A stretch of 64,000 bases of DNA, from assembly GCA_963514005.1 (NCBI GenBank), contig OY740781.1:118978001-119042000 (forward strand), read 5' to 3'. The notes under the pieces are model-generated. The model was not told the origin of the DNA. It saw nothing but the letters and a program-made list of their open reading frames with translations, and ran no database searches. Position 1 is the first letter of the stretch. Each line of letters begins with the position of its first letter. Made by a program: the position numbers and the translations under genes. Positions 1 through 55,107 of the stretch are shown piece by piece. The stretch is from Raja brachyura. Lineage: Eukaryota.

Positions 1-531
1 AGAAAGTTGCTGGAGGAACTCAGTACATTAGGCAGCAAATGTGGAAGCAAACGGATGGCATATCTCTTGGCACTCAGAAGTCATTCTCTGATGGTGGCTG
101 AATTGCTGGTGTCATTACAGACAGAGACAGAATGAAGGCTTTATGCATGGAACTAGGCATTGAGCTACATAACTTGCTGCCAATAATTGACCAGCGGTGG
201 AAATATAATCACTTTTAGTTGTGGTACCTGTAAGTCGTATGTGCAATTAATGGCATACAAAGGTATTTACAAATTGGGAAAGGTTTATATGTTTTCCATC
301 AATTGTTGTTTGATAAAAGAGATTGAAATGTAATCGATTCTCTCTGAATAGAGAGTGTCAGCGACCATCCTTTCATAGCAGAGCACGAGAAATTGCATAT
401 ATTTTCAAAATGCAGTCCATAAAGAGCATAAAATTAAAATGGTGTAACACCTTGATCGCACCAGTGTTGTAGTTTTTGCTTGGAAGTTACAGCCATAGTT
501 GTACACAATGCTAGATTTCAGTAAGGACATA

Positions 532-625
532 TTGAGGAAGGGTCTCGACCCGAAACATCACCCATTCCTTCTCTCCAGAGATGCTGCCTGTCCTGCTGAG
601 TTACTCCAGCTTTTTGTGTCTATCT
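532..625 (+). mobile_element. Penelope-like (pLTR-derived) short repeat with degenerate hammerhead core
   Basis: ttgaggaAGGGTCtcGACCCgaaacatc followed by the family sequence gatgctgcctgtcctgctgagttactccagc, also seen at 10480, 23331, 29710 and 60385. Confidence 0.6.
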
Positions 626-2184
626 TCTTATTAAAGTATAGATTGCTCGTACACAGCACGTTATTGAAGAATTCCTTCTCCAACTCCTCCATCCTTATTC
701 CTTCTCCCAGCATCATACTGTCCTTGATTATGTGAATGGATAGTTTCCAGAAAAAGTTTAAGAGGAATGCCTACAAGTGTACTCATGACTGGTTTACCAA
801 GAAGCCTTGAGGTTATGTCACATTCCTCAGCATCTGCCACACTCCACGTACTTGAAGAACCTTGATAAATTCTAGCACGCACCAAATATTAGCAACACCA
901 GGTAGAAATTAAACAACAACCAATTTGCAAGTTGTTCATTGTCTCTTTAGAGAGCCCTACGTAGCTAAAATAGCTCCAAAGTGGCAACACTGGCATCAAG
1001 TCAGCATTGTACACAGACTAATGTTATGATCAGCCTAGTCTGTTGATGAGTGTCAGCTGCACATATGTTAACACTTGTATAAGTATAATATCTGGCACGA
1101 TTCACACCACAACTATGTGCACATGGTGGACATTTATTACCTAAAATTGCACATATGGGCTCAAAAAATGCACATGCCACAGAACATAATTTTGTACTCA
1201 TTGATATTCTTCTAATTTTGTTTGAGGATCTGTAGATTCTGGAGTCAACCTATCTACCAGTGTCAATTATTTGGAATCATAGAATCGAAGAACAGAAGGA
1301 AATCACGTGGCTCTTTATTTTTGTGCTGATGAGAGAGAGCTACCCAACTTAGTCCTGGTCCTGCAAGTCACAACTCTTTGTGCGTACGTATGTATTTCCA
1401 TATGTGATGTTGGTATCTGCTCCTATTACACTATCAGCTGCTGAATTATGGAATCCTAACTGGGTTCAGTTAGATGCCATTGGATTTTAGGGAATTTTGT
1501 GGTCGGATTGAACATTATTCCCAAGATTGACATCAAGGATTGAAATTTCAACCCAGTTCGTCAATTAGAAAGATCTACCCAAATGTGGAAAGGGAGCCAA
1601 ACTCCATCAGGTTCTACTTTAAATAAGAAAATGTAAACTGCTTATTCCCCTGAGAAATAGTGTGAGCTGCTGTGGAAATAATAGCAAACAGTGTGCTGTA
1701 CAACATCATTTCATAATTTGTGGCAGGGAAGAGAAGTGTGATTGAGACACAAGAGATTGCTGGTTTCTAGAGAAATGAAATGTCTGCTGGAGGAACATAA
1801 TTGATCGGACAACCTCTGTGGGAGAAAATGAATTGTTGACATTTAGGATCAGAACCTGTATCCGGGTGATGAATTGATTTATGCTGCCCGATTCTTAGTC
1901 ACACAAATAATAAGTTCAAAATATAAACAAAATATAAGTTCAATGTCAAACACCTCCCACCCTCATTCAGCATCAAATTAAACAGCACAGAGTGTTAGAA
2001 CTGATATGTAATGGACCATTCTCATGATGTGAGTTATTTTCCTGAAAAAAACTCAGAGCTCCAGAAGAGGAAAATTGAAACCATGAGGACTGATTCCCTC
2101 GTGCCAGCAGAAAATAAATTGCTTTTAGCAGTTTTATAATTTGAATTTTACATTTACGTTTCATTTTTCCTCTCCCTCCTTTGT

Positions 2185-3599: not shown

Positions 3600-5328
3600 G
3601 GTAGTCTAAAATTTAAAGACACATGCCATAATTAATGACACACAAAACAAGCCAAATGGCCACTACATACTGTGCTCTCAATTTTCCATTGAAACACGAG
3701 AAATACCTTACAATAAAAAACAGTTTGAACTCTACTCTCAAAAATCTGCTGTTCTTTCTGTTTTTAATTTAGCTTATCTTTATCTAATTTTCTTTTTCTT
3801 TTTAAAATTTTCCATCATTGGCTGGATTTTACATATACAATGAAGATTTGGTTCTCTTTGGTCTCCTTGAGTATAAAGAGAACCAAGGCTTCATTGCCCA
3901 GAATGACCAAGCAATCTGGGGTAGAAGATTGCAACCTTCACATGGTCCACCCTGTTTCAATGAATGCAATCAACCTGGCATGCACAAACAAAAGATCAAA
4001 CAGAACAAGTTGTCTCACAACTTTAGACTGTCCACACCATACGCAAGATGAAGAAGAAGACCAAGCAATCTATATAATAATGTGGAATAAAAATAGAAAT
4101 TGCTGTGAAAAAAACCCTCAGTAGGTCAAGCAGCATCTGTCGAAAGACAAACTGTTAAATTTTCAGGTTTAAGAATCCAGTGGATTTCCAGCATCTGTAA
4201 TATTTTAATTTAATTTACTGTGTGAGGTAGGTTTCTTTTTTTCAGATGTTAGTTGTTGTCAGATATAAATTCTTAGATGTCATAGAAAATAGAACAGTAC
4301 AGCGCCAGAATGGGTCCTATGGCCCACAATGTCTGTGCTGAACATGATGGCACATTAAACTAATTTAGTCTAACTGCATGCGACCCATTTCCTTCCATTC
4401 TTTACATATCTGAGTACCTTTCCCAAGCCCTCTGAATGGCAATTTTGCTTCCAACACCACCCAGGCACAATATTCCAGGCTGCCACCAGTAACAATCCTG
4501 CTCTTGCATTCTACAATCTACATTTTTTGAAGCTGACTAAGAGTCTGTAAAGAATGGGTAGACGTTTAACCCTTCCATGATTATTTAACTCCTTAGCCTC
4601 ATCACTAACACCACTCAATTGCTGATTGACATAAACCTTTGTTTTACTCATAACCCCATAATCTTCAGTTCCTGCCTGCAAACTGCCTTAATGTTGTTCG
4701 AACTCTCATGCAAGAACCCTCATCTAACTTCCTGCAATTTCCAAATCTTTTTCAATGTTGAACTGTGAGCTATGGGCTTAATGCGAGCAAATGGGGCCAG
4801 TTCCATTTGCCAACTTGGTCGGCATGGACAAGAAGGGCCGAAAGGCCTGTTTCCTTGCTATACAACTCTATGATTCTCTGATTCTATGACACTGTTATCT
4901 CCGAGTCATCCCATGCTTGTGATCCCTCTTTTGCAATATTGCAATAATTAGCTCCAGAGTTGCTTTATTATCTGACAGGAAGGCAAGCTGCGAATCAGTT
5001 GAGAAACTCATTGGGAAGAAAAATCCTGCAATTAATTCACACAGGATGTCTGGTTGGCCAGAAAGCACCACTCCCCCATTCTTTTTCTAGCCTTCACAAT
5101 TTTAACAAGAATTAACACATTTATAATAATTAATGGATTCATTTATTTCACTGAAAAATGTCAAATATATGATCATATTAAGAATCTAGATGCAAATATC
5201 AACAAGTGATTTCGAACTGTGCAAATTTAAGATCAAATTTAAGTGTTTTAAGATTATTGCCCGTAATGAAGGAAGTCATGGACACATGCACTAGCTCCAA
5301 CCAAAACAAATACTTTGGTTTCATTTTT

Positions 5329-5651
5329 TTAGTTTTATTTCGTTTTAGAGAAATAGCCCGGAACAGGCCCTTCAACCCACCGAGTCCAGACTGACCAGCG
5401 ACCCCCACACAGTAACGCTATCCTACACACACTAGGGACAATTTACACATTTACCAAGCCAATTAACCTTCAAACCTGTATGACTTTGGAGTGTGGAAGG
5501 AAACCAAAGATCTCGGAGAAAACCCACGTAGTCACGGGTAGAATATAGAAACTCCATAGAACCAGCACCCGTAGTCGGGATCGAACCCGGGTGTCTGACA
5601 CTGCAAGCGCTGTAAGGCAGCAACTCTACCGCTGCACCACCGTGCCACCCC
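5329..5651 (-). mobile_element. HE1-like tRNA-derived SINE (V-SINE group), near full length
   Basis: - strand: A box tggtgcagcggtagag, B box ggttcgatccc, central ggtttccttccacactccaaag, CR1-like tail ggactcggtgggttgaagggcctgtt. Confidence 0.8.
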
Positions 5652-7333
5652 TGTTTTGTGTAGAAAATCTCTCTGGAGTAAAAATGGTGAATCTATATTC
5701 CTGTGACTTAACATAATTATGAATGTTAATGCATAAGTACGGCACGTTGAGGACAGGTATCTCCTCTGATGAAAAATGTTCAAAAGTTAGGAAAACTTAC
5801 CAAACAAAATATGACCCCCTGCCACACTCCTGCCTCTTGAGTTTAAAACAAGGTATTGGATTGGAACAACAAATGTGTCAGTATCCCCTAATAGTACTGA
5901 AAACGACACAGTGAATCAGATCAATTGAATTCCTCTTTAAATGGACCGCACCTTTATGAAAATACATTTGACAAACATTTAAAAACAATAGTTGAAGCTG
6001 CCTTAAAACATTTAATGTATCATCATTTCTGCATGACATTCAACTCCATTGATTTTTCTGTCTTCACAAACAAAATAATGTTGCCATAATTTTTTTATTT
6101 ATAACAACAGTTCTCTTTCTTTATCAGAAAACTCGGTTAACTCGCCCTCTGTCTGTATTCCAGCAATTAAGTTCTGCCTTTTGTTTCCGTTGGATTGGGT
6201 TGGTTCAAAGAAATGTTTGAAGTTGCCTGATATGGAGAGGAAGTGAATCATCCTCATCTGGCAGGCAGGTAGCAGATTAATTCCCATGAGAATCATTAGT
6301 AGATTAGTAACAGTAAAAATGCTTGTCGGAATCTGCTTAATAAGAAATTTAAAGATATATGATCTTAAAACTGTCTTCCTTTGGAATAGTCCAGGTTACT
6401 TCGATTTCAAAGGACAAAGTTGAAAGAATCACTGGGTTTTACATGAGCAATTAACTAATGCCTACCTTCTCCAATTTGCACTTGCACAGATTTTGAAGTC
6501 TTTCAGAATTTGCTTCATTGCAACCACAAAATAATAGCAAACAACTTACTGACAAGTTTCCAATTTTCCCATGGCATACTAGGAACATTCCCTGTGTCAG
6601 GACTTTAGTTTAGTTCAGAGATACAGCATAGTATCTGTTTGATTAGTACAGTTGTCAGAGGTTATGGGGAGAAGGCAGGAGAATGGGGTTAGGAGGGAGA
6701 GATAGATCAGCCATGATTGAATTGCAGAGTTGAATTGATGGTCTGAATGACCTAATTCTACTCCTATTCCTTATGACTAGAGTCAGGATTTTGCCATAAA
6801 TGCCATGTGCCTTTTCATGCCTTTTCGATGATTTCAGGAAGATAATGCCTTTTTCATGATTGAGTGCTTAAAACAGCCTTTTTTTTGTCATTTTAACGTA
6901 ACTTACAAGAAAATTTACACCCAAAACTAGAGATGCTTTATGTAGGTGTGAAGTGGTGATTGGGGAGGCGTCGGTGGGGAAGGATCTAATCTTTTCAAAC
7001 TGGAGTCAGGCTGTGAGTAGATGTGAAGTGTTGGTTGGGGAGGGGGTGTGGGGGTACCAGGGTTAAGTTTCTGTTTATCGAAACTGCAGTAGACTCGGTC
7101 AGGTCGTTGGTCAGCTGATGATTGCCCAAGAAGCGAGGGTTTTTCCTCTTGTAGCTTGTGATTACTTGCAAGCCCTTCCACACTGAACAAGAGTAATGTG
7201 CTGAGAACTTGCTCCTCAACTTCTCAGAGTACCTTTCCATGGCAGCTCTGATTCCTCTTCTCAGCTTGCATTTTGCTTGCCTGTAGAGGTCTACATCCCC
7301 GTTCCTGTGGGATCTACCACTGAAAACGTCAAA

Positions 7334-9175
7334 ATGGCTAAAGTCAAGTCAAGGCCTTGTCAAAAAATGAACGATTTGGTGAGAGTGTACTAGAGTGATA
7401 TATTCTCTACAGACAACTGTGTGCTGTTTTGCAAAGCATGTGAGAAAGCAGTGAATCATGAGAAGAAATATTTTGTCTCCCAGCATGTACAGAAAGCTAA
7501 ACACAAGTCAGCGGCAGAGAAACTGAAGGTAGGAAATACGCAAGCTTGTCTCCTCAAGATTCAAGATTCAAGAGCGTTTATTGTCATGTGTCCCTGATAG
7601 GACAATGACATTCTTGCTTTGCTTCAGCACAACAGAACATAGTAGGCATAGACTACAAAACAGATCAGTGTGTCCATATACCATTATATAAATATATACA
7701 CACATGAATAAATAAACTGATAGTGCAAATAACAGATAATGGGTTATTAATGTTCCGAGTTTTGTCCGAGCCAAGTTTAATAGCCTGATGCCTGTGGGGA
7801 AGTAGCTATTCCTGAACCTGGTCGTTGCAGTCTTCAGGCTCCTGAACTTTCTACCTGAAGGTAGCAGGGAGATGTGTGTGTGGCCAGGATGGTGTGGGTC
7901 CTTGGTCCTTTTTGAGGCAGCATTCACATCATTTACTGCTGGCTCCAGTCGCTAATCTGAGTTTTCGAGTGATCTGTGCAAAGCATTCATTGATGCTGGA
8001 ATTCCGCGGTGGAAATTGGAAAACAAATCTCTCAGAGGTTTTTTAGAGAGATACACAGAGGAACATATACCGAGCTAGCCATCATTACGGAAAAATTATG
8101 TTGACAGCAACTTAAACATTGTTGTGCAGAAAATTAGAGATGAAGCTGCATGCAAAAAAATATTGATTTCAATAGACGAGACAACCGATGCTGTGGGGGG
8201 AGACATTGCCAATGTGTTCATCGGTACACTGGAGGCAGGTCAACCATCAAAGGAGTATTTGTTGACATTGGAAGTATTGGAGAAGTCAAACAAGCTCAAC
8301 TATTACTCAGTTGTTTACATCTTCACTTGCTGTGTTTTGGCCACAAGGTATAAAACACACGAATGTTCTTCTGTTTGTGACTGATGCAGCTGCGTACATG
8401 AAAAAAGTTGCTTGTGCTCTTAAAGTTTTATTCCCCAAAATGTTGCATTTGACGTGCTTAGTTCACAGAGTCCATAGAATTGCCGAGCACATACGTAGCT
8501 TGTTTCCAAATGTCGATCGCCTAGTTTCCAATGTCAAGAAAATCTTCCTCAAAGCACTTTGCCCATATTTGAGATTCCACTACATCCTCAGCCTGTTTTG
8601 ACTAGTTGGGGTACATGGCTCTGTGCTATACTCTACTATGCTGCAAATTTTGAAAAGATAAAATTAATCATCAATTGTTTTGAAGAAAAAGAATCTGCTG
8701 CAGTCAGGATCGTCAGTGAAATCATGCAGAAAAAGTCCCTTCCCGCGATCTTGTGTTTATTGCTTCCAATTTTGCAAACTTCCCACAAGCTATTACTTCC
8801 CTTGAGAAACATGGCGAAACATTAGTGAATAACTTGCAGGTTTTCACCAAAGTAACTGACGATATTCGTAAAGTTCCTGGCGATGTAGGTAAAGACATAC
8901 AAGGAAAATGTGAGAGAGTGATTTTAGCTAACAAAGATCTTGAAGAAATACAAAACATAGCTAAAGTTCTCAAAGGTTGTTGTTATTCACAAGATATCAA
9001 CATGAATATAGAGTTTGTAGCTTATTTTGGGTATGCACCAGTGACCTCAGCTGGGGTAAAAAGAAGTTTTTCACATCTGAATCATATTCTGTCTGACAGA
9101 CGGCATAGTTTAACACCAGATAATTTGACAAAAATGCTAGTAATTATGAGCAACAAGGCAACTTTGGCCATTTAA
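7334..9175 (+). pseudogene. Decayed hAT transposase with CGGBP1-like N-terminal zinc finger
   Basis: MAKVKS...LFCKACEKAVNHEKKYFVSQHVQKAKH (C2H2); ISIDETTD and FVTDAAAYM (catalytic Asp contexts); HLTCLVH (CxxH); APVTSAGVKRSFSHLNHILSDRR (hAT C-terminal motif, ERSFS changed to KRSFS). Contains stops, frameshifts and a LINE insertion. Confidence 0.85.
7557..7923 (-). mobile_element. Rex1/Babar-like LINE 3' fragment inserted in the transposase
   Basis: KDPHHPGHTHISLLPSGRKFRSLKTATTRFRNSYFP; tail gacaataaa followed by (TCTTGAA)n. Confidence 0.8.
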
Positions 9176-10102: not shown

Positions 10103-10612
10103 AGAAAGGAACTGCAGATGCTGGCTTACACTGAAAATAGACACAAAATGCTGAAGAAACTCAACGGGACAGACAGCATTTCTGGATAGAAGAAATGAGT
10201 GACGTCACCCATTCCTTCTATCCAGAGATGTTGTCTGTCCCACTGAGTTACTCCAGCATTCTGTGTCTATGTAATAGTAAAATGCTTATGATGAGTGAAA
10301 TGCAGTTAACATTTCATGTCCCAATCTTTCATCAAAACTGCGAAAGGTTTGAGACGTAGCAAGATAGAACAAGCAGATAGGAAGCAAGCACTTCTGACTC
10401 AATTTTTAAATGCTGTTAAATTGAAGTCAATGAAACAGACTTTTACATAATCACCTAAGGTTAACTTGCAGATAGAGGAAGAAGAAGAAGGCTCTTGATC
10501 CTAAACGTCAACTATTTGTTTTCTCCAGAGATGCTACCTGATCCGCTGAGATACTCCAGCTTTATGTGTCTGTCTTCGGTTTGAACCAGCATCTGCAGTT
10601 CCTCCCACACAA
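10103..10612. mobile_element. Cluster of Penelope-like palindromic repeat fragments
   Basis: aaggaactgcagatgctgg...gacacaaaatgctg and its reverse complement at 10200-10270 and 10480-10612. Confidence 0.6.
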
Positions 10613-11214: not shown

Positions 11215-11343
11215 TCTGGATCATGTTTGTATCTGAGCCAAGTCTATTGAAACCTTCTGCAGCAGATTCCCCAATAATTTCTGTTAGGGAATCTGCTGCA
11301 GAAGGTATCAACAGATCTGGTTCAGTTGCAGACATGGACCAGA
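11215..11343. repeat. Long imperfect palindrome (hairpin)
   Basis: Perfect 20-bp core ACCTTCTGCAGCAGATTCCC (11252-11271) / GGGAATCTGCTGCAGAAGGT (11287-11306); pairing extends with mismatches to about 57 bp per arm. Confidence 0.9.
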
Positions 11344-15454: not shown

Positions 15455-16700
15455 TTACTCAAAATCACCATATCTAATGAGTAGCCTGCTAACCCGTCCG
15501 GCACGTGTGTGGTATGAAGCCGCTTCACCTCCTTTCACGGGAGAAGATACCGGGGAGGGAACGCGAGATATGACCAGGGACCCGACGGGACGGGGAGGTG
15601 GTGACATAGGCGAGTGAGGCACCGAAAGCCGCGGGGTGGCCGCGGTGGAAACGGTCTCTGATAGTGGAGGTAATGGGAGGGAATACAAAACGCGAGACAT
15701 CTGGATATGGAGTCGCAGGACGTGGTTCCTTCACTGGAAGGATATGTTGACGGTTGCGTCTGTAAATGGCCTTGTCCGCTTCAACCAGATAAGAGCGCAA
15801 TTCTTTGGCAGGGCCGTGGATGTGACCCAGATGGCCTTAGCCCTTGTTGGTCTGGAGGCAAACCACGTGTCCACTGGTGAGAGGTTTAAGTGGCTTACTG
15901 GATTTGTCAAAAAAACGTTTCTGTGTATTGCATTTGAATTGCAGTTGTTTCGGGACTGCAGCCGGAGAACAAACTTGTGGCTGCAAAAGCTGCTGGGACA
16001 CAGGCAGGGGAGCACGGGTTTGGCGAAACATCAGTCGCTGGGCTGGGGAACCCAGTATGGGATCGCTTGCAATGTTCCTTAAGTTGAGCAGGTCTAGGTA
16101 GACATCCGATTTTGAAAGGTATGAACGCTCCATTAGTTGTTTTACGCTTCGGACGGCTCATTCGGCGAGTCCGTTGGACAGCGGAAACTCAGGGCTGCTG
16201 GTAATATGTCGGAGGTACCATCGTTTTGCAAAGTTTTTGAAAGACTGGCTGGTGAACTGTCTGCCGTTGTCAGACAGAAGACATGCAGTGGAGCTGTGCA
16301 CGGAGAACAGGCACTACAACTTTGCGATAACCGCTTCAGATGTAATGGCTTGGAGTAGATCTATGTCGAACCAGCCCGAATAAGAATCAACAAGAACCAG
16401 ATAGTGATTCCCATGCACTTCGAATATATCGGTGGCTAACGTGGACCACGGGAGTGGAGGAACCGGGTGGGGCAGTAAGGGCTGCTTCTGCTGATGTGGC
16501 GTCAGGCTTTTGCAGATGGCGCAGACTTCAGTTTTGTCACGTATGTACATGGTCATACCAGACCAGTAAAACATGCTTTGTACCCGTTGTAGGGTTGCCT
16601 CCATGCCGGGGTGGCCCCTGTGGATGGTGTCCATGCCGGGGTGGCCCCTGTGGATGGTGGAAGTACTCGTCTTGTCCTGTAACACCAGTTCGTCGTGAAC
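15455..16700 (-). pseudogene. Gypsy integrase remnant
   Basis: HRGHPG...CAIC zinc finger; PWSTLATDIF...YLVLVDSYSGW; SDNG; SNGLAE*AV; SPAQRLMFR; C-terminal TRAGR; several frameshifts. Confidence 0.9.
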
Positions 16701-16748
16701 CAGGAAGTATGGGCGAATCGCGAGCGGGGTGCTGTGTTGTTTATCCGG

Positions 16749-17723
16749 TCAGCCACGCCGGATGACTGCGGACAGCAATTGTAAAGTTTCGTCAGCAGCC
16801 ATTTGTTCTGCCAGGCTGCTCAAGCAATCAGTAGGAACATGCAATACCTTCATTACTGAGAACTGGTCCTGTTCAGAGAGTTGTTGTTCGCTGGTTTTGC
16901 GCAGGGCTCTTGATAGCGTGTCAGCTATGTGCATGTCCTTGCCTTTCTTATAGACACTGTTGAAATCAAACCACTGCAGTTGCATCATCATCCGTTGTAG
17001 GCAGGCTGGGGCAGCGTGAATGGGTTTATTCAAAATAGTGACCAGCGGCTGGTAGTCAGTTTCTACATTCACAGACTTCCCAAAAATAAAGTCCTTGAAT
17101 TTTGTGCAGGCGAAAACCACTGCGAGCAATTCTTTTTCGATCTGGGCGTAACGTTGGTCAGTGTCAGTTAGTGTGCGAGAGGCGTAAGAAACAGGCTTGC
17201 AGTCGCCATTGGTAGTGGTTTGCAGGCAAGCAGCGCCAAGTCTGCACTGGGACGCATCACAGGTGAGCGGCACTGGTAACTCCAAAGCAAAGTAGGTAAG
17301 AGTTGGCCTGAGGTGCTTGGACCACAGGAATGACGTTGGGATCAATGACAATGTGGTATTTGAGGGGCAACTTGCCAAGCTCAATGTTAAACAGTTCTTT
17401 GTATTGAGAGAGTACTTGCTGAGTGGGTCCCTCAGTGAGAAAGAGGTGATGGACAGCCCCGCCAAAGTATTGATATCGAGCAAAGTCTCTGAATTCCCCT
17501 TGACGATATAAAACATTAGGGTATGGGGCTGCGTGACTATGGTGTATTTTAAATTCGTCTGTGCAAGTAGGTGTATAACATCACCCCCGTAGGCCCGAAG
17601 CGTGGCCGAGGCCTTTTCAATACGTTCAGCATTACAAATGTTTTTAAACTCTGATGACGAGATGATGTTGCATTTCGCGCCCTTAACAACCTTGGCGATC
17701 ACAGATCTGTTGTTCACAAACAT
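16749..17723 (-). pseudogene. Gypsy protease remnant joined directly to RNase H
   Basis: AKVVKGAKCNII (decayed DTG motif), LRAYGG; LTCDAS...PVSYASRTLT...YAQIEKELLAVVFAC...ETDYQPL...IADTLSR; no YxDD-containing RT region between them. Confidence 0.88.
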
Positions 17724-17879
17724 GGTTACTTCAGGGTGAAGTTGCTCGTTAGACGAAGGGAGGAGAGAGTGGATGGCTGAACAATTATCTGTACTTACCT
17801 GTTATCTGTTAACAGAGAGCTGAGCGGGGGATGGCAAGTCAGGCTCTTGGTATTCGTTATCAGCAAGCTCATGTCGTAA

Positions 17880-18961
17880 CCTGTGCAGGCTCTGAGTCGC
17901 ACAGGAACTGCAACATCTTGCAAAGTGGTTTAATTTCTTGCAGAAATTACAGGTTTTACCATAAGCATTTTGCCATGTAATGGGCTGCCACCATTGTCTG
18001 CCATGTAATGGGCTGCCACCATTGTCTGCCATGTAATGGGCTGCCACCATTGTCTTACCATGTAATGGGCTGCCACCATTGTCTATTTATCCTTTTATCC
18101 TTTTTATCCATGCCTATCCTTCTGTTAATTTATCGTGTTGCACAGGGAACCAAATGCAACGTAATTTCGTTTGGAACTGCATATATCAATGTATTTCTAA
18201 ATGACAATAAAGTTTGTTTGACTTTTGACTTTTGAAGCAATACAGAACTGTCGACCCATAGCATGAAAATAGTTGCAATTAGGACATCGAGCAGCAGACA
18301 ATCTCTGCTGCCAGGCCGGGGATGGCTGGGAATGGCTGTTACGAGAGGAGGTGTCTGTAAGATTGACACTATACAGCGAACGTTGACCGGAGGACATAGA
18401 CTTAGTGTGAGAAGATGTTATCTCAGCAATCCGGCAGGTGTGCTCGGCTTGATTAAGGGTCAGGTCAGTGTTACGGATCTGTTCATCCCTTAACTTGCTA
18501 TCAAGCATACCTCCAACAATTTTGGCATGGATGAGTTCATCGCACGGATCACGAAACTGGCAGCGTGCAGTCATGTGTTTTAAGCCGCTGATAAAACGTT
18601 CAATCGGTTCATCAATCTGTTGCATACAAGCATAAAACTTGGTAGTTCAATAATGTAGTTTGAGGGCAGGCCACACAACTGCCTGAACTTTGCAAGTAAG
18701 ACGGCAGGGTCATCAATCGTCTCTGCAGGCACTAGGACCTGTCCATTTGCATCTAAAACGGCAGCCTCAAATGTGAAATTGCGGGCATGATTCATTCCCT
18801 CTGGGCCAGCTAAGTTGAGTAATACAGAAGCACGCACATCAGGAGGGTCGTTGCGATGAACGATGCGAACATAGTGAGTGTAGTCATGCTCGAAAAGACG
18901 CCAGCATTCAGCAGTGTCCGTCAAAGATCAGGGGACTAGGACAGCGAGATGAGTTTGCCAT
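17880..18961 (-). pseudogene. Gypsy gag remnant with CCHC zinc knuckle
   Basis: ATG at 18961; VLLNLAGPEG; QQIDEPIERFISGLKHMTARCQF; CNFCKKLNHFARCC; interrupted by the insertion at 17968-18234. Confidence 0.85.
17971..18083 (+). repeat. Tandem repeat, 4 x 28 bp (TGCCATGTAATGGGCTGCCACCATTGTC)
   Basis: Three exact copies and one variant, at the 5' end of a 267-bp insertion. Confidence 0.95.
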
Positions 18962-23200: not shown

Positions 23201-23327
23201 AAAGCTTTACACAGCATTTTACATGTTGTTTTTTTGTTTTCTTATTCTCTAAATTCTCTCAATATTTTATCAATATCATCCGCATATTGCCATGGCAAAC
23301 CTAGCTTCAACCTGTCAAAGATATTGA

Positions 23328-23364
23328 AGGTCTGAAGAAGGGTCTCGACCCGAAACGCCGCCTA
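23328..23364 (+). ncRNA. Minimal type I hammerhead ribozyme-like motif in a Penelope-like repeat (23328-23455)
   Basis: aggt CTGAAGA a GGGTC-tc-GACCC GAAAC gcc gcct: both conserved boxes, helix II, and helix I aggt/gcct; the cleavage triplet reads GCC here instead of GUH. Confidence 0.6.
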
Positions 23365-23839
23365 TCTCCTTCGCTCCTTAGATGCTGCTGCACCCGCTGG
23401 GTTTCTCCAGCCTTTTGTGTAACCCTCGATTCTCCAGCATCTGCAGTTCCTTCTTTAACAAAGATATTCTTCTTGCATTTTCCATGTACCTTTGGGGATG
23501 TATACTCCAAAGTAATCTCTAACTTCTCGGTAACTTAAAGCTAACCTGTCTCTTTTTTCCCATTTCTGATGAAGGGTTATCAACATTAAACATTTACACT
23601 GTATCTCTTTCACAGATGCTGCCTGATCTGCCAAGTGATTCCAGCATTTTTCCTGTCTATCATAGTTTTCCATCACCTGTAGTGTTGAGATTTTTGTGAA
23701 TTCTCATGTCGGGTTTCATTGTATGTTACTATTTGTAAAGTATGTTAAAGCATTAATGTCTCACAGTTCCGCCATGCACGATTCAATCCTGACCCTTGGA
23801 AATTGCACATTCTGTGTAGTAAGCCCCAGGTTTTAGTTT

Positions 23840-27762: not shown

Positions 27763-28800
27763 TTCAATTCAATTCAATTCAATTCAAGTTTAATGTCATT
27801 GCACGAATACAAGTATAGGTACAACGAAATGCAGTTTAGTGTCATTCTTAGTGATAGCGATATAAAAAAATAAATACAGAGTGCAGTGGTAGCAGTACGG
27901 AATTAAATAAATACAGGGTACAGACAAGTCTATCAGCTGGGCTCCGAGTTCAGCAGTCTGATGGTGTAGTTGAAGAAGCTGTTCTTCGTCCTACTGGTGC
28001 GGGACCTGAGGCTCCTGTACCGCCTCCCTGATGGGAGGAGGGCAAACAGTCCATGGTTAGGGTGTGAGGGGTCCTTGATGATCTTCCCGGCCCGCTTCAG
28101 GCACCGTTTTCGGTGGAGGGCATCCATGGCAGGGAGCGGGGCACCGATGATGTACTGGGCGGTTTTCACCACCCGTTGTAGTGCCTTCCTGTCTGCCACG
28201 GTGCAACTGCTGTACCATACCGTAAAGCAGGTGGTCATGCTTTCAATGGTGCAGGGGTAGAAGTTCATCAGGATCCGGGGGGACAGGTGGGCTTTTTTGA
28301 GCCTCCTCAGAAAGTAAAGGCGCTGCTGTGCCTTTTTGATCAGCTTTGAGGTGTTGAGGGACCAGGACAGATCCTCCGAGATGTGTACCCCGAGGAATTT
28401 GTAGTTGGAGACCCTCTCCACCTCAGTCCCGTTTATATGGATGGGGGTGTGTCTGCCCCCTCTGTTCTTCCGAAAGTCAACAATTATTTCCTTCGTCTTC
28501 TGGGAGTTGAGGACGAGGTTATTGTTGGCACACCAGGTGGCCAGGTGCTGGACCTCCTCCCTGTAGGCTGATTCGTCATTATCACTAATCAGTCCTACCA
28601 CCGTGGTGTCATCGGCAAATTTTATAATGGCGTTGGAGCCATAATTGGGGATGCAGTCATGCGTGAAGAGGGAGTAGAGGAGAGGGCTGAGCACACAGCC
28701 CTGTGGCATGCCGGTGTTCAGTGTTATAGTGGAGGAGGTGAGGTTGTTGACCCTAACAGACTGTGGTCTGTTAGTGAGGAAATCCAGTGTCCAATTGCAG
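27763..28800 (-). mobile_element. Young 5'-truncated Rex1/Babar LINE
   Basis: (TTGAA)n tail; TAGAA duplicated at 27758-27762 and 28801-28805; uninterrupted ORF. Confidence 0.9.
27933..28800 (-). CDS. Rex1/Babar reverse transcriptase, C-terminal part (open but 5'-truncated)
   Basis: [16 protein letters not shown]...[18 protein letters not shown]...[12 protein letters not shown]...[13 protein letters not shown]. Confidence 0.85.
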
Positions 28801-28953
28801 TAGAAAATTAGCTTTATGGAAGGAAGCAGAGGTTGATGGTGGAAGATTGCCTTTCGGACTGGTGGCCTGTGAGTAGTGGTGTGCTTCATGATTCGGTGCT
28901 GGGCCCATTGCTGTTTGTCATCTATATCAATGATTTGGATAAGAATGTACATG

Positions 28954-29231
28954 CATAACTGCTAAACTCTAGTTGAGGACCAATGCCTTTAATATTATAT
29001 GGAAACCGGTACTATTACAAATTCCAAGATTGATTAAGGATATGAATGGATGAGCTTGCTATGGTGCCTGTGAATAAGATGCTTCTATGATAGAATGTTA
29101 AGAGGATCTGATGTGATGCAAATAGAGGTTAGGTGATTTGTATTTTGTCATTTTGCGATTGTCTTTTATGTGTCTCTTTGTTTTGTCTGTATGTGTATTT
29201 CGTTATGTCAATAAATGTTGAGTTAAAAAAA
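28954..29231 (+). mobile_element. L1-clade LINE extreme 3' end
   Basis: 13-bp TSD AAGAATGTACATG (28941-28953 and 29232-29244); AATAAA plus poly(A); ITAKL*LRTNAFNIIWKP resembles an L1 ORF2 C-terminus. Confidence 0.75.
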
Positions 29232-29580: not shown

Positions 29581-29803
29581 TGTGGAGGAAGGAACTGCAG
29601 ATGCTAGTTTAAACCGAAGATAGACACAAAAATGGAGTAACTCTGTGGGACAGGCAGCATCTCTGGAGAGAAGGACCGAGACCCTTCTTCAGATTGGTCA
29701 GTCTGAATAGTCTGAAGAATGATCTCAACCTGAAAAGTCACCTATTCCTTCTCTCCAGAGATGTTGCTTGTCCCACTGAGTTACTCCAGCTGTTTGTGTC
29801 TGT
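29581..29803. mobile_element. Penelope-like inverted-repeat short element with TSD
   Basis: 14-bp TSD CATTGAGTATAGAA (29567-29580 and 29804-29817); two oppositely oriented halves; degenerate CTGAAGA...GAAA.GTC core at about 29712-29739. Confidence 0.75.
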
Positions 29804-31469
29804 CATTGAGTATAGAAGTTGGGAGGTCATGTTACATTTGTATAAGACCGCATATAGAATAGTGTGCTCAGTTATGGGTACCATGTTATAGGAAGGCTAT
29901 TGCCAAACTGGAAAAGGTGCAGAGAAGATTTACAAGGATGTTGCCAGGACTTGAGGGTCTGAGCTATAGCGATAGGAGTGATCTTATAGAGCTGTAAAAT
30001 AACATGAGAGGAATTGATCGGGTAGACTCATAGAGTCTCTTGCTCAGAGAAGAGGAATCGATAACCAGAGAACATAGGTTTAAGGTGAGGGGAGAAAGAT
30101 TTAATAGGAACCTGAGGGGTAACTTTTTCACGCAAAGGGAAGTAGGTGTAGAAACGAGTTGCCGGAGGAGGTAGTTGAGGTAGGTACTATCGCAACATTT
30201 AAGAAACATTTAGACAGATACATGGATAGGACCGGGTTATAGGGATATAGGCGGGACTTGTGTAGATGGGACATGGTGGCCAGTGTGGGCAAGTTGGGCT
30301 GAAGGTCCTGTTTCCACATTATAAGACTATGAGTTTCGAAAATGTACAAGGCAAATTATGGTAAGCAAAATTTGAAAAACAATGTTCTTGTAAGTTATTG
30401 GTACAAGTTCAAATTGAAGAGGAATATGATTTTCCTTTGGGAGGAATTGTGACTTTGAAGTGTAGAAATGTGAAAAAAAAAGCTTTAATGTTATAAGGCT
30501 GCTTATCATATCCTGTCAGCAGCATTCATTGATATGTCAGCCAGGAACAGAGCCTGTGGGACCAATTAGTAGCTGCAAGAACTCCGCCGTTGGAACTGTG
30601 AACCCGAGACTGAATTACTGACCAAGCAGCAGAAAAAATAAATGTACCAGATGTACTGTTTTACTTGATCTATTCTGAAAGACAGTAATTATTAACTAAA
30701 CCAGGTTTAACAGATAGACAAGTAAATGGGGAAAGAACTGGACTGTAAAAGATGAATTTTATATTTTGAAATTATTAGAATTCGAGCGAATTTGATCCTC
30801 CTTTAATTAACAGTTGTTTGAAATCAACAGTGAAGAATGGTCAGGTGATATTTGCAACCACAAATGTTGTCCTAGTATCCTTGATCTTTGTTGAAGTTTC
30901 ATCGAGTGGCACAGGTCACATTAGCATCTGCATGTGTAAACTTATTTTATTACTATCTGAGTAGTTTATGGTTGTGGACCTGAGCAATCCTGTGAGAAGG
31001 AAGTCATCAATGAGCAGTGGAAAGAGAAACTGATGATGGAAAGGGAGGAAGCCAAAGAGGCAAAAGGGATTCACCGTGTCGAAACTTCAGGAAGGGAGAA
31101 CTTTGATTGAAACAATAAATATACCAATTACCAATTACCAAATATACCAATACTGAAATTGCACTATTAGCTATTTGTAATATTTGTACCAGCCAGATAC
31201 CACCAACACGTTGGCTCAGAATGCATTCTTGAGAAAGGAGTGGAACTTGAAGTTCTCATATCGCTCCAAATTGCTGTAAATTTGACCAATGTCATTAGCT
31301 AAGAGGGCATCTAGGAATGTTAAGATTTTAACCCAAAAGGTTAAGTTGTTTTATCTTTCCACCGATCAATGTGTTGGAAAGAACTACAGGTGCTGATTTA
31401 AATCAAAGGTAGTCACAAAATGCAGGAGTAACCTAGGGGGACAGGCAGCATCTCTGGAGAGAAGGAATG

Positions 31470-31503
31470 GGTGACTTTTCGGGTCGAGACCCTTCTTCAG
31501 ACT
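31470..31503 (-). ncRNA. Minimal hammerhead ribozyme-like motif in a Penelope-like repeat (about 31372-31540)
   Basis: - strand agt CTGAAGA a GGGTC-tc-GACCC GAAA a GTC acc: both boxes, helix II and the GUC triplet are retained. Confidence 0.6.
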
Positions 31504-31773
31504 GATGTCTCTGTCTCTGCCCCGCCCACTCCCCTGACAACACTCTCCCTTGACCCTGAGATGTAATCATCTGATTTTTTTCCAATTTCTGGACATCCAC
31601 TCTTTTACTCTAATTCTGTGCCTTCTAGATCCTGAAACCTCCAACTGTTAATTCATCTGATCATCCCTTTTATGGTCTCTTAGAAGTATGGAGTAAGTGC
31701 ACGCTGTGATAGGAAGATTATGCATGTGGGCTATTAAAAGTGTGTCTAACAAATTCACAATCTACACCAGAAC

Positions 31774-38315: not shown

Positions 38316-38566
38316 AACCCGATCAGTATTGAACGAGTTACAAGAGTAGTGAGATAGCAGCATTAACTGTTATACCACCATGCCACATAGTTACATTGTG
38401 AAATCTTTGTTAAAGAAGGAACTGCAGATGCTGGAGAATCGAGGCGATTATCTCCTTCGCTCCTTAGATGCTGCTGCACCCGCTGAGTTTCTCCAGCCTT
38501 TTGTGTACCCTTGTGAAATCTTTGTATATGTGATGTTTAACATATTGAGTGCCGGAGCTACAGTGT

Positions 38567-41141: not shown

Positions 41142-41999
41142 CTCTTGTTCTATACCATGTTACAAACATTCATTCTATTTGCTCCAACCTTCCTCCTACT
41201 TTGCAACTTCAAACATTTTTGATTTCTCGTGCTGATGAAAGATCATTAATCTGACACATCAACTCTTTCTCTCTCAACAGTTTCCACCTGACCTGCTCAG
41301 TAGTTTTTGCTTTTCTTGTTTTATTTCAGCTTTCCAAAGACTCCTTCTTCTTCATCACACCATTCATTCTGATCTCTTTTTGCTCCTTTTTCATTAGGAC
41401 CAACAGACTATTTGGCTGATAGACCTTCACGTATATAATTGTATGGACAACAATTTAATAATCATTCTTTGCTTAATACAAAGTAATACAGAAACTAATG
41501 TATTTTATGCACTGTAGCAGATTGACTTGTATCAGAACGTCCCGCATGAAACTTCATCACTAATGAGAAATTATTATTCTCAATCAATTAGTTAATTATT
41601 AATACTTAATGAATGACAAATTATTATTAATGCTGTGAGGATGCAATGTTAAATTATGTACAGCACATTTAGTATGACTACTTGAACACACGCCACGTAA
41701 GCACACATACTGAAGAAACCATGTGGTCTTCAACTACTTAATATAGTGGCTTCCTGGAGAATGGTCGTTAGACAAATTTTCTACCATGGGAGTAGATGTT
41801 AGAATATACTCGTCTCATGTTTCCTGATTCTGACTGCACAAGGCTGCACTGACTGCATGAAATTGGGAGTCGTTGTTTTGCATGACTCTGCTCACAGCTC
41901 ACAATTCATGATGCTTATGTGCTTAAAAGCCTTGTACACAAGTAAATTGATCCCTTGTATTTTGCCTCATGCAGTCAGAATTTAATATGTATTACCATA

Positions 42000-43170
42000 T
42001 CCCGCATAAGAGATTAGCATACAAACTTAAAGCACACGGTATTGGGGGTTCAGTATTGATGTGGATAGAGAACTGGCTAGCAGACAGGAGGCAAAGGGTA
42101 GGAGTAAACGGGTCCTTTTCAGAATGGCAGGCAGTGACTAGTGGGGTGCCGCAAGGCTCAGTGCTGGGACCCCAGCTATTTACAATATATATTAATGATT
42201 TGGACGAGGGAATTCAATGCAACATCTCCAAATTTGCAGATGATACCAAGCTGGGGGGTATAGTTAGGTGTGAGGAGGATGCTTGGAGGCTGCAGGGTGA
42301 TTTGGATAGGCTGAGTGAATGGGCAGATGCATGGCAGATGCAGTACAATGTGGATAAATGTGAGGTTATCCACTTTGGTGGCAAAAACATGAGGGTAGAC
42401 TATTATCTGAATGGTGGCAGATTAGGTAAGGGGGAGATGCAACGAGACCTGGGTGTCATGGTACACCAGTCATTGAAAGTAGGCATGCAGGTGCAGCAGG
42501 CAGTGAAGAAAGCAAATGGTATGTTAGCATTCATAGCGAAAGGATTTGAGTATAGGAGCAGGGAGGTTCTACTGCAGTTGTACAGGGTTTTGGTGAGGCC
42601 ACACCTGGAGTACTGCGTACAGTTTTGGTCTCCAAATCTGAGGAAAGACATCCTTGCCATAGAGGGGGTACAGAGAAGATTCACCAGACTGATTCCTGGG
42701 ATGTCAGGACTTTCATATGAGGAAAGATTGGATAGACTCGGTTTGTACTCGATGGAATTTAGAAGATTGAGGGGGGATCTTATAGAAACCTACAAAATTC
42801 TTAAGGGGTTGGACAAGCTAGATGCTGGAAGATTGTTCCCGATGTTGGGGGAGTCCAGAACAAGGGGTCACAGTCTAAGGATAAGGGGGAATTCCTTTAG
42901 GACCGAAATGAGGAAAACATTCTTTACACAGAGAGTGGTGAGTCTCTGGAATTCTCTGCCACAGAAGGTAGTTGAGGCCAGTTCATTGGCTATATTTAAG
43001 AGGGCGTTAGATGTGGCACTTGTGGCTAAAGGGATCAGGGGGTATGGAGAGAAGGCAGGTACGGGATACTGAGTTGGATGATCAGCCATGATCACATTGA
43101 ATGGCGGTGCAGGCTCGAAGGGCCGAATGGCCTACTCCTGCACCTATTTTCTATGTTTCTATGTTTCTAT
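42000..43170 (+). mobile_element. Young 5'-truncated CR1 LINE
   Basis: Open ORF2 3' part to the stop at 43072, a short 3' UTR and a (TTCTATGT)n tail. Confidence 0.95.
42002..43072 (+). CDS. CR1 ORF2 reverse transcriptase, C-terminal part (open, 5'-truncated)
   Basis: SGVPQGSVLGPQLFTIYINDLD...KFADDTKL...[14 protein letters not shown]...FFTQRVVSLWNSLP; no stops. Confidence 0.9.
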   Translation, partial: PHKRLAYKLKAHGIGGSVLMWIENWLADRRQRVGVNGSFSEWQAVTSGVPQGSVLGPQLFTIYINDLDEGIQCNISKFADDTKLGGIVRCEEDAWRLQGDLDRLSEWADAWQMQYNVDKCEVIHFGGKNMRVDYYLNGGRLGKGEMQRDLGVMVHQSLKVGMQVQQAVKKANGMLAFIAKGFEYRSREVLLQLYRVLVRPHLEYCVQFWSPNLRKDILAIEGVQRRFTRLIPGMSGLSYEERLDRLGLYSMEFRRLRGDLIETYKILKGLDKLDAGRLFPMLGESRTRGHSLRIRGNSFRTEMRKTFFTQRVVSLWNSLPQKVVEASSLAIFKRALDVALVAKGIRGYGEKAGTGY

Positions 43171-49512: not shown

Positions 49513-52500
49513 TTTTTTTTAAAATAATTTTTTTAATTAGAAGTAAATACAGAATCAAAAGCATTTTGTTTGTTGTAGTCATACATTATTAATATTATTT
49601 ATATTAACAATTGTATAGTAATTGTACTTCTATATATTTTTTAATTTTTTTTATAGATAGAAAGTAATAGAGAGGGGAAAAAACAAAAAAAAACAAAAAA
49701 AGAATGGAGTATTCAACTGATTATGCATCATTGGAGATATGTCTGCGGATTATAAAATGTAATTCTTCATCTATTCCTTGATTCAGGTTTCAGTCAGATT
49801 CTCGTGCCGAACCAGTTTTCCCCTTCAAATATTCAATCAATGGGGACCATATTCTAGTAAATAGTTCTTGTTTGTCCATTAAGACAAATCTTAATCTTTC
49901 CAATGTAGGGTCTCCGACATTTCCATAGTTCACATTTTAATTGTGGGGGTTATAGGGCCTTTCCAAAATGTTAATATTAATTTTTTCCCAATTATTAAAC
50001 TACAATCGATAAAAGTTCTTTGGTTCATTGTAAATAATTGATTTTGTTCAAGTATTCCTAATATTATTAATTTTGAATCAGGGACCAATTTGGTATTGAC
50101 GACTTCCGATATTATCTTAAAAATTTCCATCCAAAAATTATTAATTTTTATACAGCTTACAAATGTGAGGGTTAAATTAGCCTCTAAGTGTTGACATTTG
50201 TCACAAATAGGGGATACGCATGGGAAGATTCTTTTTTTTTTGTAATATCTTTTTTTATTAAAAGTAACCAATTATAATGCTTTTAGCAACTTTTCAAACA
50301 TCAACTTAATTCCATTATTTTACAGATAATGCATTAATAATTCTTCTTATACTCTATTTTTTTTAGAAATATAGATAGAAAAAGAACAGAACAGTTATAA
50401 ATCATTAAAGGTGTGATTAAATAATAATTTGATTATATATAAGAAAGTGAAAAAAAAAGAGAAAGGGAAAAAAGTTATCAAAAAAAAAAAAAAAGAAAGA
50501 GTATTATATATATATATATGTAAACAAGACAACAGTATACATTATCGATAAAGCTATTACAGATAGTAATATCCATAAAAACATGCATGTTAATCCCAAT
50601 GTGAAAATGAGTTATTCCCGCCGAATCTCTTTAGATCCCGCCAGATTCTATTTAATTTGGTTTTTGAATAGTGCAATCTATGTAATACTTTAAATTGTAT
50701 TAAAGAATGTCTAGCATTTAACGAACAGTGATGTATATGTTGTAAGCTTTCATCCCATATTTCTGGCCTTATTATTTGACCTAGTTCGTTTTCCCATGAT
50801 TGCCTATATATTTCCGTCATGGGTGCATCATTATCAAATAGAATATTATAAATATAAGATATCAATTTTTCTGTGTTCAGGTGTTTATTCAAACATTCAT
50901 CAAGAATTTCTGTCTTTCTATTTCTATAGTCCTGTGTATTTGACTTAGCATAGTCTCTAATTTGTAGATATCTAAAGTAGTCTTTTGAATGAAGCCCATA
51001 AATTTGTTATAGTGCCTGAAATGAGAGAAATGAACTATTCCTATAGAGATCACCCATGTTTGTAATTCCGTGATTTTTCCATTGTAAAAAACCTTTATCC
51101 ATCATTTAAGGTTTAAATGTAGCATTGTTTACAATGGGAAGAGATAGTGGTCAATAATCCAATTTTAGTGTCTTCTTTAATTGTTTCCAAATGCATATTC
51201 CACTGACTATTATAGGGTTTTCTTTATAGGTTTTTTTGCTTAATTTAGTAATAGCAAATAGAATCAACCCAATTTCAAAAGGTAAACAGTCTTCCTTTTC
51301 CATTTTTAACCTATCTGGTTGTTTGTCCAGTTCTTCCAACCAAAAATTCATATTTTTAATATTACCTGCCCAAAAATAAAACATAAAATTCGGTAGTGCT
51401 AAACCTCCATTTATTTTTGATTTACATAAGTGTTTTTTATTTATTATGTGGTTCTTATAATCCCAGATAAAATTGGTGACTATAGTCAATCTTTTTTTTA
51501 AAGTTTTTGAGAGATATATCGGGATTAATTGAAAGAGGTACAGTAATTGTGGGAGAAACATCATTTTTATCGCATTAATTCTACCCAACATTGAAATAGG
51601 TAATGTTTTCCAATGTAAAATATTCTTATGTAATTCGTTCAATAAAGGCGGAAATTTAGATTTAAATAAAGAAGTATATCTCTTTGTTACATAAATTCCA
51701 AGATATTTGAGTTTTTCATTTACTATTTTAAAAGGGAATTGTTGTAATATATATGTGGGTCACTTTCCATTATTGGCATGATTTCACTTTTATTCCAATT
51801 AATTCTGTATCCTGAAAACGAGCCATATTGAGTTATTAAATAAGTTAGGGATACTAACTTCAGGTTTTGTGATGTAAATTAATACATCGTCTGCGTATAA
51901 GGAGATTTTTTTTTTCAGTATCTTTGGTTTTATACCCATTTATTTCAGGATGGGACCTCATGCTTTCTGCTAATGGTTCTATTACAAGTTCAAATAATAG
52001 CGGGATAACGGACATCCTTGTCTACAGCCTCTAGATAAGTTAAATTTAGTTGATAACATTTGATTTGTTGATATTCTAGCTGTTGGATTAGTATATAAAA
52101 GTTTTACCCATGTACTAAACTTCTCGCCCAGTTGAAAAATTACCATAACCGAAAATAAATAGGGCCATTCCACCTGGTCGAAAGCTTTCTCAGCATCTAA
52201 CAAAATAATTGCTAGGTCTTTGTTAATACTTTTTGAGTATATAATATTGAATAATCATCTCGGGTTATATGAGGAATACCGTTTTGGTATAAATCCTGTT
52301 TGATCCGGGTGTATTAATTTATTGATCACTGTACTTAATCGTTGTGCGAGGATTTTAGTTAATATTTTTTGATCAGTATTTAGAAGAGCTATAGCTCTAT
52401 ATGATCCTGGATCATCCAGATCCTTATCTATTTTTGGTATAAGTGTTATAATAGATTCATTTAGCATTTCTGGTAATTTCTGTTGGGTATAGATATGTTC

Positions 52501-53250: not shown

Positions 53251-53643
53251 AAGAATAGCTGATTTTTTCACTTTTCTGGGAGATCTGGATGTTGGTGGTG
53301 ATTTATTTATTGCCCATCCCATATGCTTCTGAGGGAAAGTTGACAGTTAGTTGGTCCTGTTAAAACCATGACCAAAATGCTGTTGAGGAGAGAGGTTCCA
53401 GATTCACATCCAACATGATGATGGAATGGCAATGTAAGGATCCAAGTAAGGATCATGTGACTTGGAAGAGGACCCGTCAATGTGGTATTTTCATGTGCCT
53501 AGAGCCACTGTCCTTCAAGGTGGTAAAACTTGTGGGTTGGGAGATGCTATCAGAGAATCCTAGGTAAGTAAAGACAGTACATTCTGTGGATAGTGCACAA
53601 TCAAGCCGCTGAACATTAGTGGGAGAGAAAATAGAGTCGGAAC

Positions 53644-53726
53644 GTTGGTCCGAAGGGCCTGTTTCCACTCTGTAAGACTCTATGACTCCGAGTCTTACAG
53701 AGTGGAAACAGGCCCTTCGGACCAAC
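53644..53726. repeat. Perfect 37-bp inverted repeat with 9-nt spacer, formed from CR1 tails
   Basis: 53644-53680 is the exact reverse complement of 53690-53726. Confidence 0.95.
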
Positions 53727-55107
53727 TTGCCCACACCGGCCAACATGTCCCATCAACACTAGTCCCACCTACCTGCATTTGGCCCATACCCCTCTAAACC
53801 TGTCCTATCCATGTGCCTGTCTAAGTATTTCTTAAACATTGCGTTAGTTTCTAAAATGGATAGGATAATGGATGGAGTACTAACCAAGCAGTTTGCCTTG
53901 TCCTGTGGAGTTTCTCGAGAATTGTTAGAGCTGCACAACAGCAAGTGGAGAGCATTCTATCACATTCTTGTTGTGCCTTGCAGGTGTTGGAAAGGAGTAT
54001 GGGGTCAGGGAGTGAGCTACTTGTCCATACAAATAATGAAACTGCTATATGCATTGTGAGAGGTATCTCATAGTCTTATTCTTACAGATAATATGAAAGA
54101 CTTATTTACAACGTCGGGATAGGTCCTGGCCACTTGTGGGCAAATCCACCAGAAGGGAATGGCACGGAGATGTACAGGCAATATTGTGTAACTCTGGGAG
54201 TCCTCAACATTGAATGCATGTGATCTCAGATCATCAGGTCAATCACATGCAAGTAAATCTCCTCCTGATTACGCCCTCAGAAAATGATGATAAGTGGTTG
54301 TCCAAGTTCAACAATGCTAGGAGAAGCACTGAATGTGACAAGTAGGGCATATTGTGCTCTGGCTCGGGGTCTTCAGTGTTCATCACCAAGAATGACATGG
54401 TAGTACCAGTAGCAACTGAACGCTGAATCTTATCTGGCATTGCAGCCAGATGAGGTTGGCAGCAGGCTATGAGTGAACCAAATATGAGGGCTAAACAAGC
54501 TTGACCTTGCCCTAACTATTGAAAAAGGCTTCTCGAGGAAACACTTCTCTAATATTTCCATCTGTCCTTGTTCAATATTTTTGTGCACATTAAATTATGG
54601 ATAATACCACCCACACAGCCAACTGCTTGTAACTTGTAGGTGCATTGTGACTCAAATGTCTGCAGAGTTAAATATATAAAGTACTAATTTCAAATTTAAG
54701 CTGATGTAAAACTCACAATTGATTGGCAATAATGTCAGAAAAGTAATATTTGAATCTAGGTTATGGATCAGGGCCTCTCATTTGTAAACATCAGTGTGGG
54801 TTTTCTCGAAGATCTTCAGTTTCCTCCCACACTCCAAAGACATATATGTTGCTTGGTATGAATGTAAATTGTCCCTAGTGTGTGTAGGATAGTGTTAGTG
54901 TGCAGGGATCTCTGGTCAGTGTGGACTCGGTGGGTCAAGTGCCTGTTTCCGCGCTGTATCTTTAATCTAAACTAAACTTTTACAATATAAACACAACTTT
55001 TATATTTTTATTCCTAAACTATTAAGAATTGCAGGAACATAATCTGGCTAGATAATTTACAAACGTTTTCATGTCTCATTCTGAATCTATGTGGTTCTAC
55101 CATATTA

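Follow-up and report, generated by a model that had tools for sequence, protein, structure and literature searches.

The motif CTGAAGA-A-GGGTC-TC-GACCC-GAAAC-GCC at positions 23332-23359 (+) of the window, the 64,000-nt stretch of Raja brachyura DNA analyzed here, raises the question of whether this hammerhead core belongs to a ribozyme element of its own or to a larger retrotransposon. Positions 23330-23459 differ at only 3 of 128 positions from the terminal repeat (pLTR plus tail) that is linked to full-length Penelope-like elements (PLEs) of the same genome. The feature can be identified with good confidence as a short, mutated terminal-repeat insertion of an abundant Neptune-type Penelope-like retrotransposon, which likely arose when the element's own enzyme copied the 5' end of uncut RNA into a nicked target. 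Positions 23330-23459 are thus likely a copy of the first 130 nt of the element's uncut RNA and not a separate ribozyme element.

The insertion is bounded by a 10-bp target-site duplication, CAAAGATATT, with the left copy at 23316-23325 (+) and the right copy at 23459-23468 (+); its first letters may overlap the element end by microhomology. They enclose 4 nt of filler followed by positions −2 to +127 of the element, with C3 of the hammerhead counted as 0. The filler GAAG (23326-23329, +) corresponds neither to the target nor to the upstream sequence of the element and is likely a slipped re-copy of the GAAG in the core. The element starts with GT (23330-23331, +), the 5' strand of a 2-bp helix I, one base inside the putative transcription start at the A of CAGT. 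This is followed by the CUGAAGA box with an extra A between positions 9 and 10.1 (23332-23339, +), by helix II, GGGU/ACCC with a CUCG loop (23340-23351, +; 90.6% of cells paired in alignment A1), and by the GAAA box with the palindromic remnant of helix III and the cleavage triplet GCC (23352-23359, +), in which U16.1 of the master triplet GUC is changed to C at 23358. The remaining pLTR (23360-23425, +) reaches the first fixed 3' end, which the 3'-end alignments mark as the presumed first start of reverse transcription. The alignments place the 34-nt tail, a feature known from PLEs (PMC8557442; PMC11167929), at 23426-23459 (+), up to the second fixed 3' end. The tail of tandem elements continues into the leader of the open reading frame (ORF). 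The purine box at 23333-23341 is complementary to the tail end at 23449-23458; pairing between the start of the RNA and the second priming site is accordingly predicted.

Two details of the structure first proposed for this motif have to be revised. A 4-bp helix I (aggt/gcct) had been drawn, the AG of which is junction filler and not element sequence. Upstream of the core, full-length elements read ...CCCTGACCAGT, with CCAGT in the place of the GAAG filler, and GAAGGT precedes the core in only 266 genomic copies; the 4-bp pairing is therefore accidental. The sequence further upstream of these 266 copies is unrelated, and their fillers vary (TGAAG, GAAGAAG, or target derived). A 5-bp helix II with a 2-nt loop had also been drawn; because a loop of 2 nt cannot close the helix, it is replaced by 4 bp with the CUCG loop. 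The claim that helix III consists of the palindrome ACGT only agrees with the ACGU of the master motifs. The same upstream sequences bear on a further, very improbable reading, in which the CAG preceding the core serves as a splice acceptor, with a spliced-in exon ending in GAAGG completing a 4-bp helix I, as an intron does in Drosophila Penelope. A pyrimidine tract and CAG do precede the core, and D. virilis provides a precedent (PMC4209133), but no matching GT..AG joint is present among the best-supported RNA-contig joints listed, beyond which there are 233 more, and GAAGG as a spliced exon is ruled out by its restriction to 266 copies with no common sequence further upstream.

The abundance of the repeat was determined with a profile built from five copies in the window. 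With this profile, the window gives 16 matches and an 800-kb genome sample gives 298, compared to 0 in shuffled sequence; the hammerhead descriptor check suggested at the outset gives, in its strict form, 41 matches in 800 kb and likewise 0 in shuffled sequence. A larger sample of the 2.7-Gb genome, consisting of 120 10-kb stretches drawn from large contigs at round coordinates (1,199,600 bases), contains 453 profile matches, equivalent to ∼1.0 million fragments genome-wide (bootstrap, 0.87 to 1.19 million), and 70 strict descriptor matches, equivalent to about 158,000. The exact 28-nt core is found in 50,608 genomic copies, in accordance with the predicted high-copy family. The Rfam scan, also suggested at the outset, does not recover the hammerhead family among its 11 matches at E values of up to 5, a result that is not counted against a hammerhead, since the forms concerned are minimal and devoid of helix III.

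The same repeat lies directly downstream of reverse transcriptase (RT) and GIY-YIG frames in full-length elements, as established by walking upstream from the repeat; one locus among the first matches, L017, already carries RT and GIY-YIG sequence immediately 5' of it. The linked GIY-YIG/RT ORF for which a search had been proposed is thus present elsewhere in the genome, and a tblastn search of the 64-kb window agrees with the earlier statement that no Penelope ORF lies within it. At least three loci (L163, L165, and L166) retain open frames of 1,203 to 1,204 codons. Locus L163 is arranged as an inverted tail-less pLTR, a partial copy, a full ORF, and a tailed pLTR; the partial-tandem pLTR with an adjacent inverted copy is also found in L164. 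The encoded protein shows a YIDD motif, a CX4CX2C linker (CNRKRCYTC at 1071), and GIY-YIG, and it matches the Pfam families RVT_1 and GIY-YIG, with whole-protein scores under the curated cutoffs. Its nearest named relatives, 65 to 74% identical, come from sharks and rays. In the 1.2-Mb sample, 26 of 36 matches to the endonuclease C terminus have the motif within 700 nt downstream, and several subfamilies are represented.

By its sequence, the element classifies as an EN+ PLE with a single ORF encoding RT plus a GIY-YIG domain at the C terminus, linked to the repeat. EN+ PLEs are described as carrying a partial tandem, an inverted copy, and a tail of 30 to 40 nt at one end (PMC8557442). The linker motif, the domain order, and the host group point to Neptune, with the linker being shared with Nematis. 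As in the Neptune-clade PLEs described by Craig et al. (2021; PMC8557442), the single ORF encodes RT, then a CX2-5CxxC linker, and then GIY-YIG, and the partial tandem and inverted copy are accompanied by a short tail, here of 34 nt. The element differs from that description in a long proline-rich N-terminal region and in that most insertions are stubs of 100 to 130 nt; its clade is a tentative assignment by linker motif, domain order, and host group. The ORF comprises ∼1,190 codons from the first ATG, which lies ∼160 nt past the hammerhead core. RNA contigs from four runs, two possibly DNA, cover parts of the element, evidence that cannot show ends, strand, or level.

Some further observations concern the full-length loci. 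A second frame of ∼232 codons overlaps the proline-rich N-terminal region at L163:4888-5583 (−) and at the matching places in L164 to L174, in all full-length copies listed, and may be an effect of base composition. At L166:2366-2375, a donor-like AAG/GTATG coincides with the ORF's first ATG. Loci L116, L111, L131, L279, and L022 contain dispersed tandem arrays with a unit of ∼65 nt from the same pLTR family; these units begin at GAAACGTC and lack the CUGAAGA box and helix II, leaving the substrate half of the hammerhead only.

The linkage to RT/GIY-YIG frames argues against the central claim of the original prediction, a separate non-coding, retrozyme-like family. Non-LTR retrozymes are composed of head-to-tail tandem units with a hammerhead in each, and the study describing them included one cartilaginous fish (bioRxiv 2026.07.22.740005). 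The copies in Raja brachyura resemble them in being non-coding, pLTR-related sequences with a type I hammerhead (bioRxiv 2026.07.22.740005; see also PMC7229834). In contrast to the retrozymes described, they are dispersed solo copies, as is the one at 23330, or inverted pairs that match ORF-bearing elements; head-to-tail neighbors are rare, and no family distinct from the ORF-bearing elements was found. An autonomous cycle, in which the short copies of a retrozyme- or SINE-like family would be transcribed, self-cleaved, circularized, and reinserted by the Penelope enzyme, is accordingly improbable. It would be in keeping with the excess of short over long copies among 66 young copies (45 short solo copies and 12 in inverted pairs, compared to 9 long ones), with the derivation of non-LTR retrozymes from pLTRs (bioRxiv 2026.07.22.740005), and with a Penelope promoter that can be internal (PMC2377424), so that stubs could be transcribed. 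Against it, the short copies match the ORF-linked pLTRs subfamily by subfamily; among 280 core-bearing copies, only 6 same-strand neighbor pairs are found within 300 nt, compared to 31 opposite-strand pairs; and there is no permutation of the copies at the cut site, at which few of them begin.

How the stubs arise from the Penelope-like element can be approached through their ends. In 24 sampled and 41 pattern-picked alignments, which include some sister-family matches, split alignments, and overlapping loci, 5' ends cluster at −7 to 0 (11 of the sampled and 23 of the pattern-picked alignments). The 3' ends of 13 sampled and 24 pattern-picked alignments lie at +87 to +95, and a second class ends at about +126. 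Two fixed 3' ends, 34 nt apart, thereby bracket the tail. Target-site duplications of 8 to 17 bp flank 25 of the 45 short solo copies. The copies start just before the hammerhead core and not at the cut site, where 344 breaks are counted, compared to 246 at a control site 2 nt away; 36,554 copies continue across the cut site. The small number of breaks at the cut site indicates that the template was mostly uncut RNA, with the 1.4-fold excess leaving room for rare cleavage. The CAGT before the core is kept across subfamilies with differing upstream sequence, and it fits an initiator consensus, YYANWYY.

On this view, the transcript would begin with the A of CAGT, three bases ahead of the core, and reverse transcription would be primed by the enzyme within the RNA, at +93 or +127, as has been demonstrated in vitro for an anole PLE. 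On unit-length RNA, copying would run off the 5' end after about 100 to 130 nt and leave a stub, and full-length copies would need read-through RNA from a tandem. In the anole PLE, priming occurs internally at two sites, and the hammerhead is dispensable for insertion and cuts only with the protein (PMC11167929); in the Penelope of D. virilis, transcription starts inside the pLTR (PMC2377424). The present element shares with Poseidon PAc of Anolis carolinensis (Frangieh et al., 2024; PMC11167929) two fixed 3' ends bracketing the tail and insertions with an uncut hammerhead. It belongs to another clade, and its ATG follows the core by ∼160 nt, in contrast to the ORF of PAc, which is described as beginning within helix II (PMC11167929). 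The findings on PAc come from biochemistry and those on the present element from sequence.

These steps combine into a model that is put forward tentatively. The stubs would correspond, in Penelope, to the strong-stop DNA of retroviruses and would have been fixed in the genome by the hundred thousand. A capped RNA would begin three bases before the hammerhead, and the ribozyme, as the first 31 nt of the message, would act as a self-decapping switch triggered by dimerization or by the protein. Internal priming on uncut RNA would account for the stubs and for full-length copies that come only from tandem read-through RNA. Of 6,166 copies that break just before AGT, the first 100 listed show a preceding G in 46 cases, A in 41, and T in 13 (28% G expected; P = 1.3 × 10^−4), and G also precedes the presumed start in 12 of 22 sampled solo copies. 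This excess of G at −4 fits a copied cap. Junction fillers of 1 to 18 nt are often present, and together with the common A (41 of 100), they mean that the G excess may reflect slippage and not a cap.

The same junctions lend an appreciable, though less than even, chance to ordinary 5' truncation, which would leave the identity of the element unchanged and require no transcription start: on a long read-through RNA, the enzyme would stall or switch templates at the CAG-T-CTG palindrome or at structure before the core. Junctions of head-to-head pairs frequently read CAGTCTG or CAGACTG; slippage of the template at this place is evident from fillers in which GAAG or TCTGAAG has been copied again; and 5' truncation is typical of PLEs (PMC8557442). 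The pileup of 5' ends, however, holds also for solo copies with target-site duplications. A defined transcription start is further favored over truncation by the constancy of CAGT across subfamilies with different upstream sequence, by its fit to the initiator pattern, and by the G excess at −4.

Minimal hammerheads in Penelope repeats have already been described, and the motif in Raja brachyura is of that kind, as originally proposed. The min-HHRs of metazoan PLE pLTRs have an extra base before helix II as a known feature (PMC4209133), and dimer cleavage of hammerheads is attributed to Lunse, Weinberg, and Breaker in a review (PMC6765202). The master motif matches the published minimal PLE hammerhead except for its 2-bp helix I (PMC4209133). 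Like the min-HHRs of Cervera and De la Pena (2014; PMC4209133), among which Acropora digitifera Neptune is the nearest row listed, it is a type I hammerhead with a CUGANGA box, the extra base, G10.1-C11.1, a 4-bp helix II with a tetraloop, palindromic C-G at 15.2-16.2, and a cut after GUC; the copies are also mostly solo or on opposite strands, as described for min-HHR carriers. Its helix I differs, with 2 bp followed by an A.C mismatch; the published rows listed have 3 to 5 bp, and 2 bp are reported for D. virilis (PMC4209133). The copy number, with about 158,000 strict cores and 50,608 identical ones, is far above the 4,000 to 9,000 reported for coelacanth and Xenopus in the same source, the searchable supplement files of which contain no names of cartilaginous fish.

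Conservation of the core has to be considered separately for subfamilies and for dispersed copies. In seven mixture-model groups, the boxes, the extra A, G10.1-C11.1, and ACGU are common to all majorities; the one exception is G12, which has undergone CpG decay in the oldest group. The master motifs have ACGU and a GUC or GUU triplet, compared to GCC at 23332; all seven full-length-linked repeats have T at the position that is mutated in the window copy. The group majorities differ from each other in 4 of 28 motif columns, compared to 28 of 66 columns downstream (P = 0.009), a contrast that gives modest support since the groups are related and clustered on the same columns; three of the four varying motif columns are CpG decay. 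Covariation in helix II is slight: the young families show only a one-sided U-A to U.G change, which in one of them accompanies a UUCG loop and the triplet GUU, and two-sided changes in the alignment stem largely from decayed, hand-picked copies. Among individual copies, decay of 6.7% in the core versus 10.1% in the flank is given no weight, as the profile used to pick these copies requires the core. Genome-wide, 36,554 copies read GTC and 244 read GCC, and a T-to-C change at a flank control position is found in 205 copies. By this measure, the core is not protected among copies relative to the flank control, which indicates that dispersed copies decay neutrally, without selection for the core; these copies, including that at 23332, are most likely inactive. 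A spreading inactive GCC subfamily, considered as a separate candidate, is ruled out by the same counts (244 versus 205), and the frequency of GCC among the first matches is due to query bias.

Folding predictions do not favor the hammerhead in monomer or dimer (z score of −0.65 for the window copy), with a helix II probability near 0 in the predicted ensemble as CGAC/GUCG and the purine box pair elsewhere. Along with the 2-bp helix I, compared to 3 to 5 bp in the published rows listed (PMC4209133), and with positions 0 to 27 being almost frozen, including loops and N7, with little compensatory change, this leaves it possible, if rather doubtful, that the motif no longer cuts in this lineage and is kept as a promoter or protein-binding sequence at the RNA start. 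Against such a loss of cleavage, the subfamilies retain all catalytic bases together with G10.1-C11.1, the ACGU palindrome, and GUC or GUU as a valid triplet, and in one subfamily the change to U.G goes along with a UUCG loop. Since the anole PLE hammerhead needs its protein to cut (PMC11167929), poor folding in silico is also compatible with weak, assisted cleavage. The hammerhead of the master elements probably cuts weakly, assisted by dimerization or by the protein, and is dispensable for insertion.

No publication describing this Penelope family was found in a literature search, which for sharks and skates returned unrelated papers. The importance of the window copy as found is little, as it is mutated at the cleavage triplet. 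What the genome does offer is a young family whose frames are still open and intact and whose identical ends number in the tens of thousands; these ends record the points at which copying starts and stops, and the family provides a vertebrate Neptune-type element for testing the role of PLE hammerheads.

The other copies listed by the original prediction, at 31500-31473 (−), about 532, 29712, 60387 (partial), and 10484 (decayed), are all present. The sister-subfamily copy at 31375-31504 (−), with its core at 31500-31473, extends upstream into its own pLTR sequence; it keeps all conserved core bases and passes the strict descriptor, having lost only the ACGT palindrome, which contradicts the claim of a core defect in every copy. 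A head-to-head pair at 29588-29808 joins a tailed copy with an internal deletion (−) to a decayed tail-less copy (+). At 10106-10270, the junction of another head-to-head pair is the ACGT palindrome of helix III, which suggests that two cDNAs annealed there. An inverted insertion of the young subfamily of the 23330 copy, with a target-site duplication, is located at 38407-38510 and consists of an inverted tail (−) joined to a core-less, tail-less fragment (+). The copy at 528-626 (+), with its core at about 532, is tail-less and lacks C3, with GAAACATC. Profile and alignment place a decayed tailed copy at 10484-10607 (+), and the profile places a partial copy that begins in helix II at 60387-60468 (+). 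The reported CTGATGA variants at 23566 and 41232 are likewise present, in old decayed copies at 23563-23660 (+) and 41230-41318 (+); with 2 of 186 strict cores, CTGATGA is rare and does not resolve as a subfamily.

Apart from these copies, near-perfect hairpins formed by inverted repeat pieces are found at 11244-11314 and 53642-53728, with weak Rfam microRNA matches far below gathering scores. Broken LTR-retrotransposon-like frames at 16314-18646 (−) appear by eye to be integrase-, RNase H-, and gag-like. Other fragments recognized by eye are CR1/L2 LINE-like (41951-43072, +), LINE-like (27933-28961, −), L1-like (50590-51759, −), and similar to the end of a hAT transposase (8720-9175, +).
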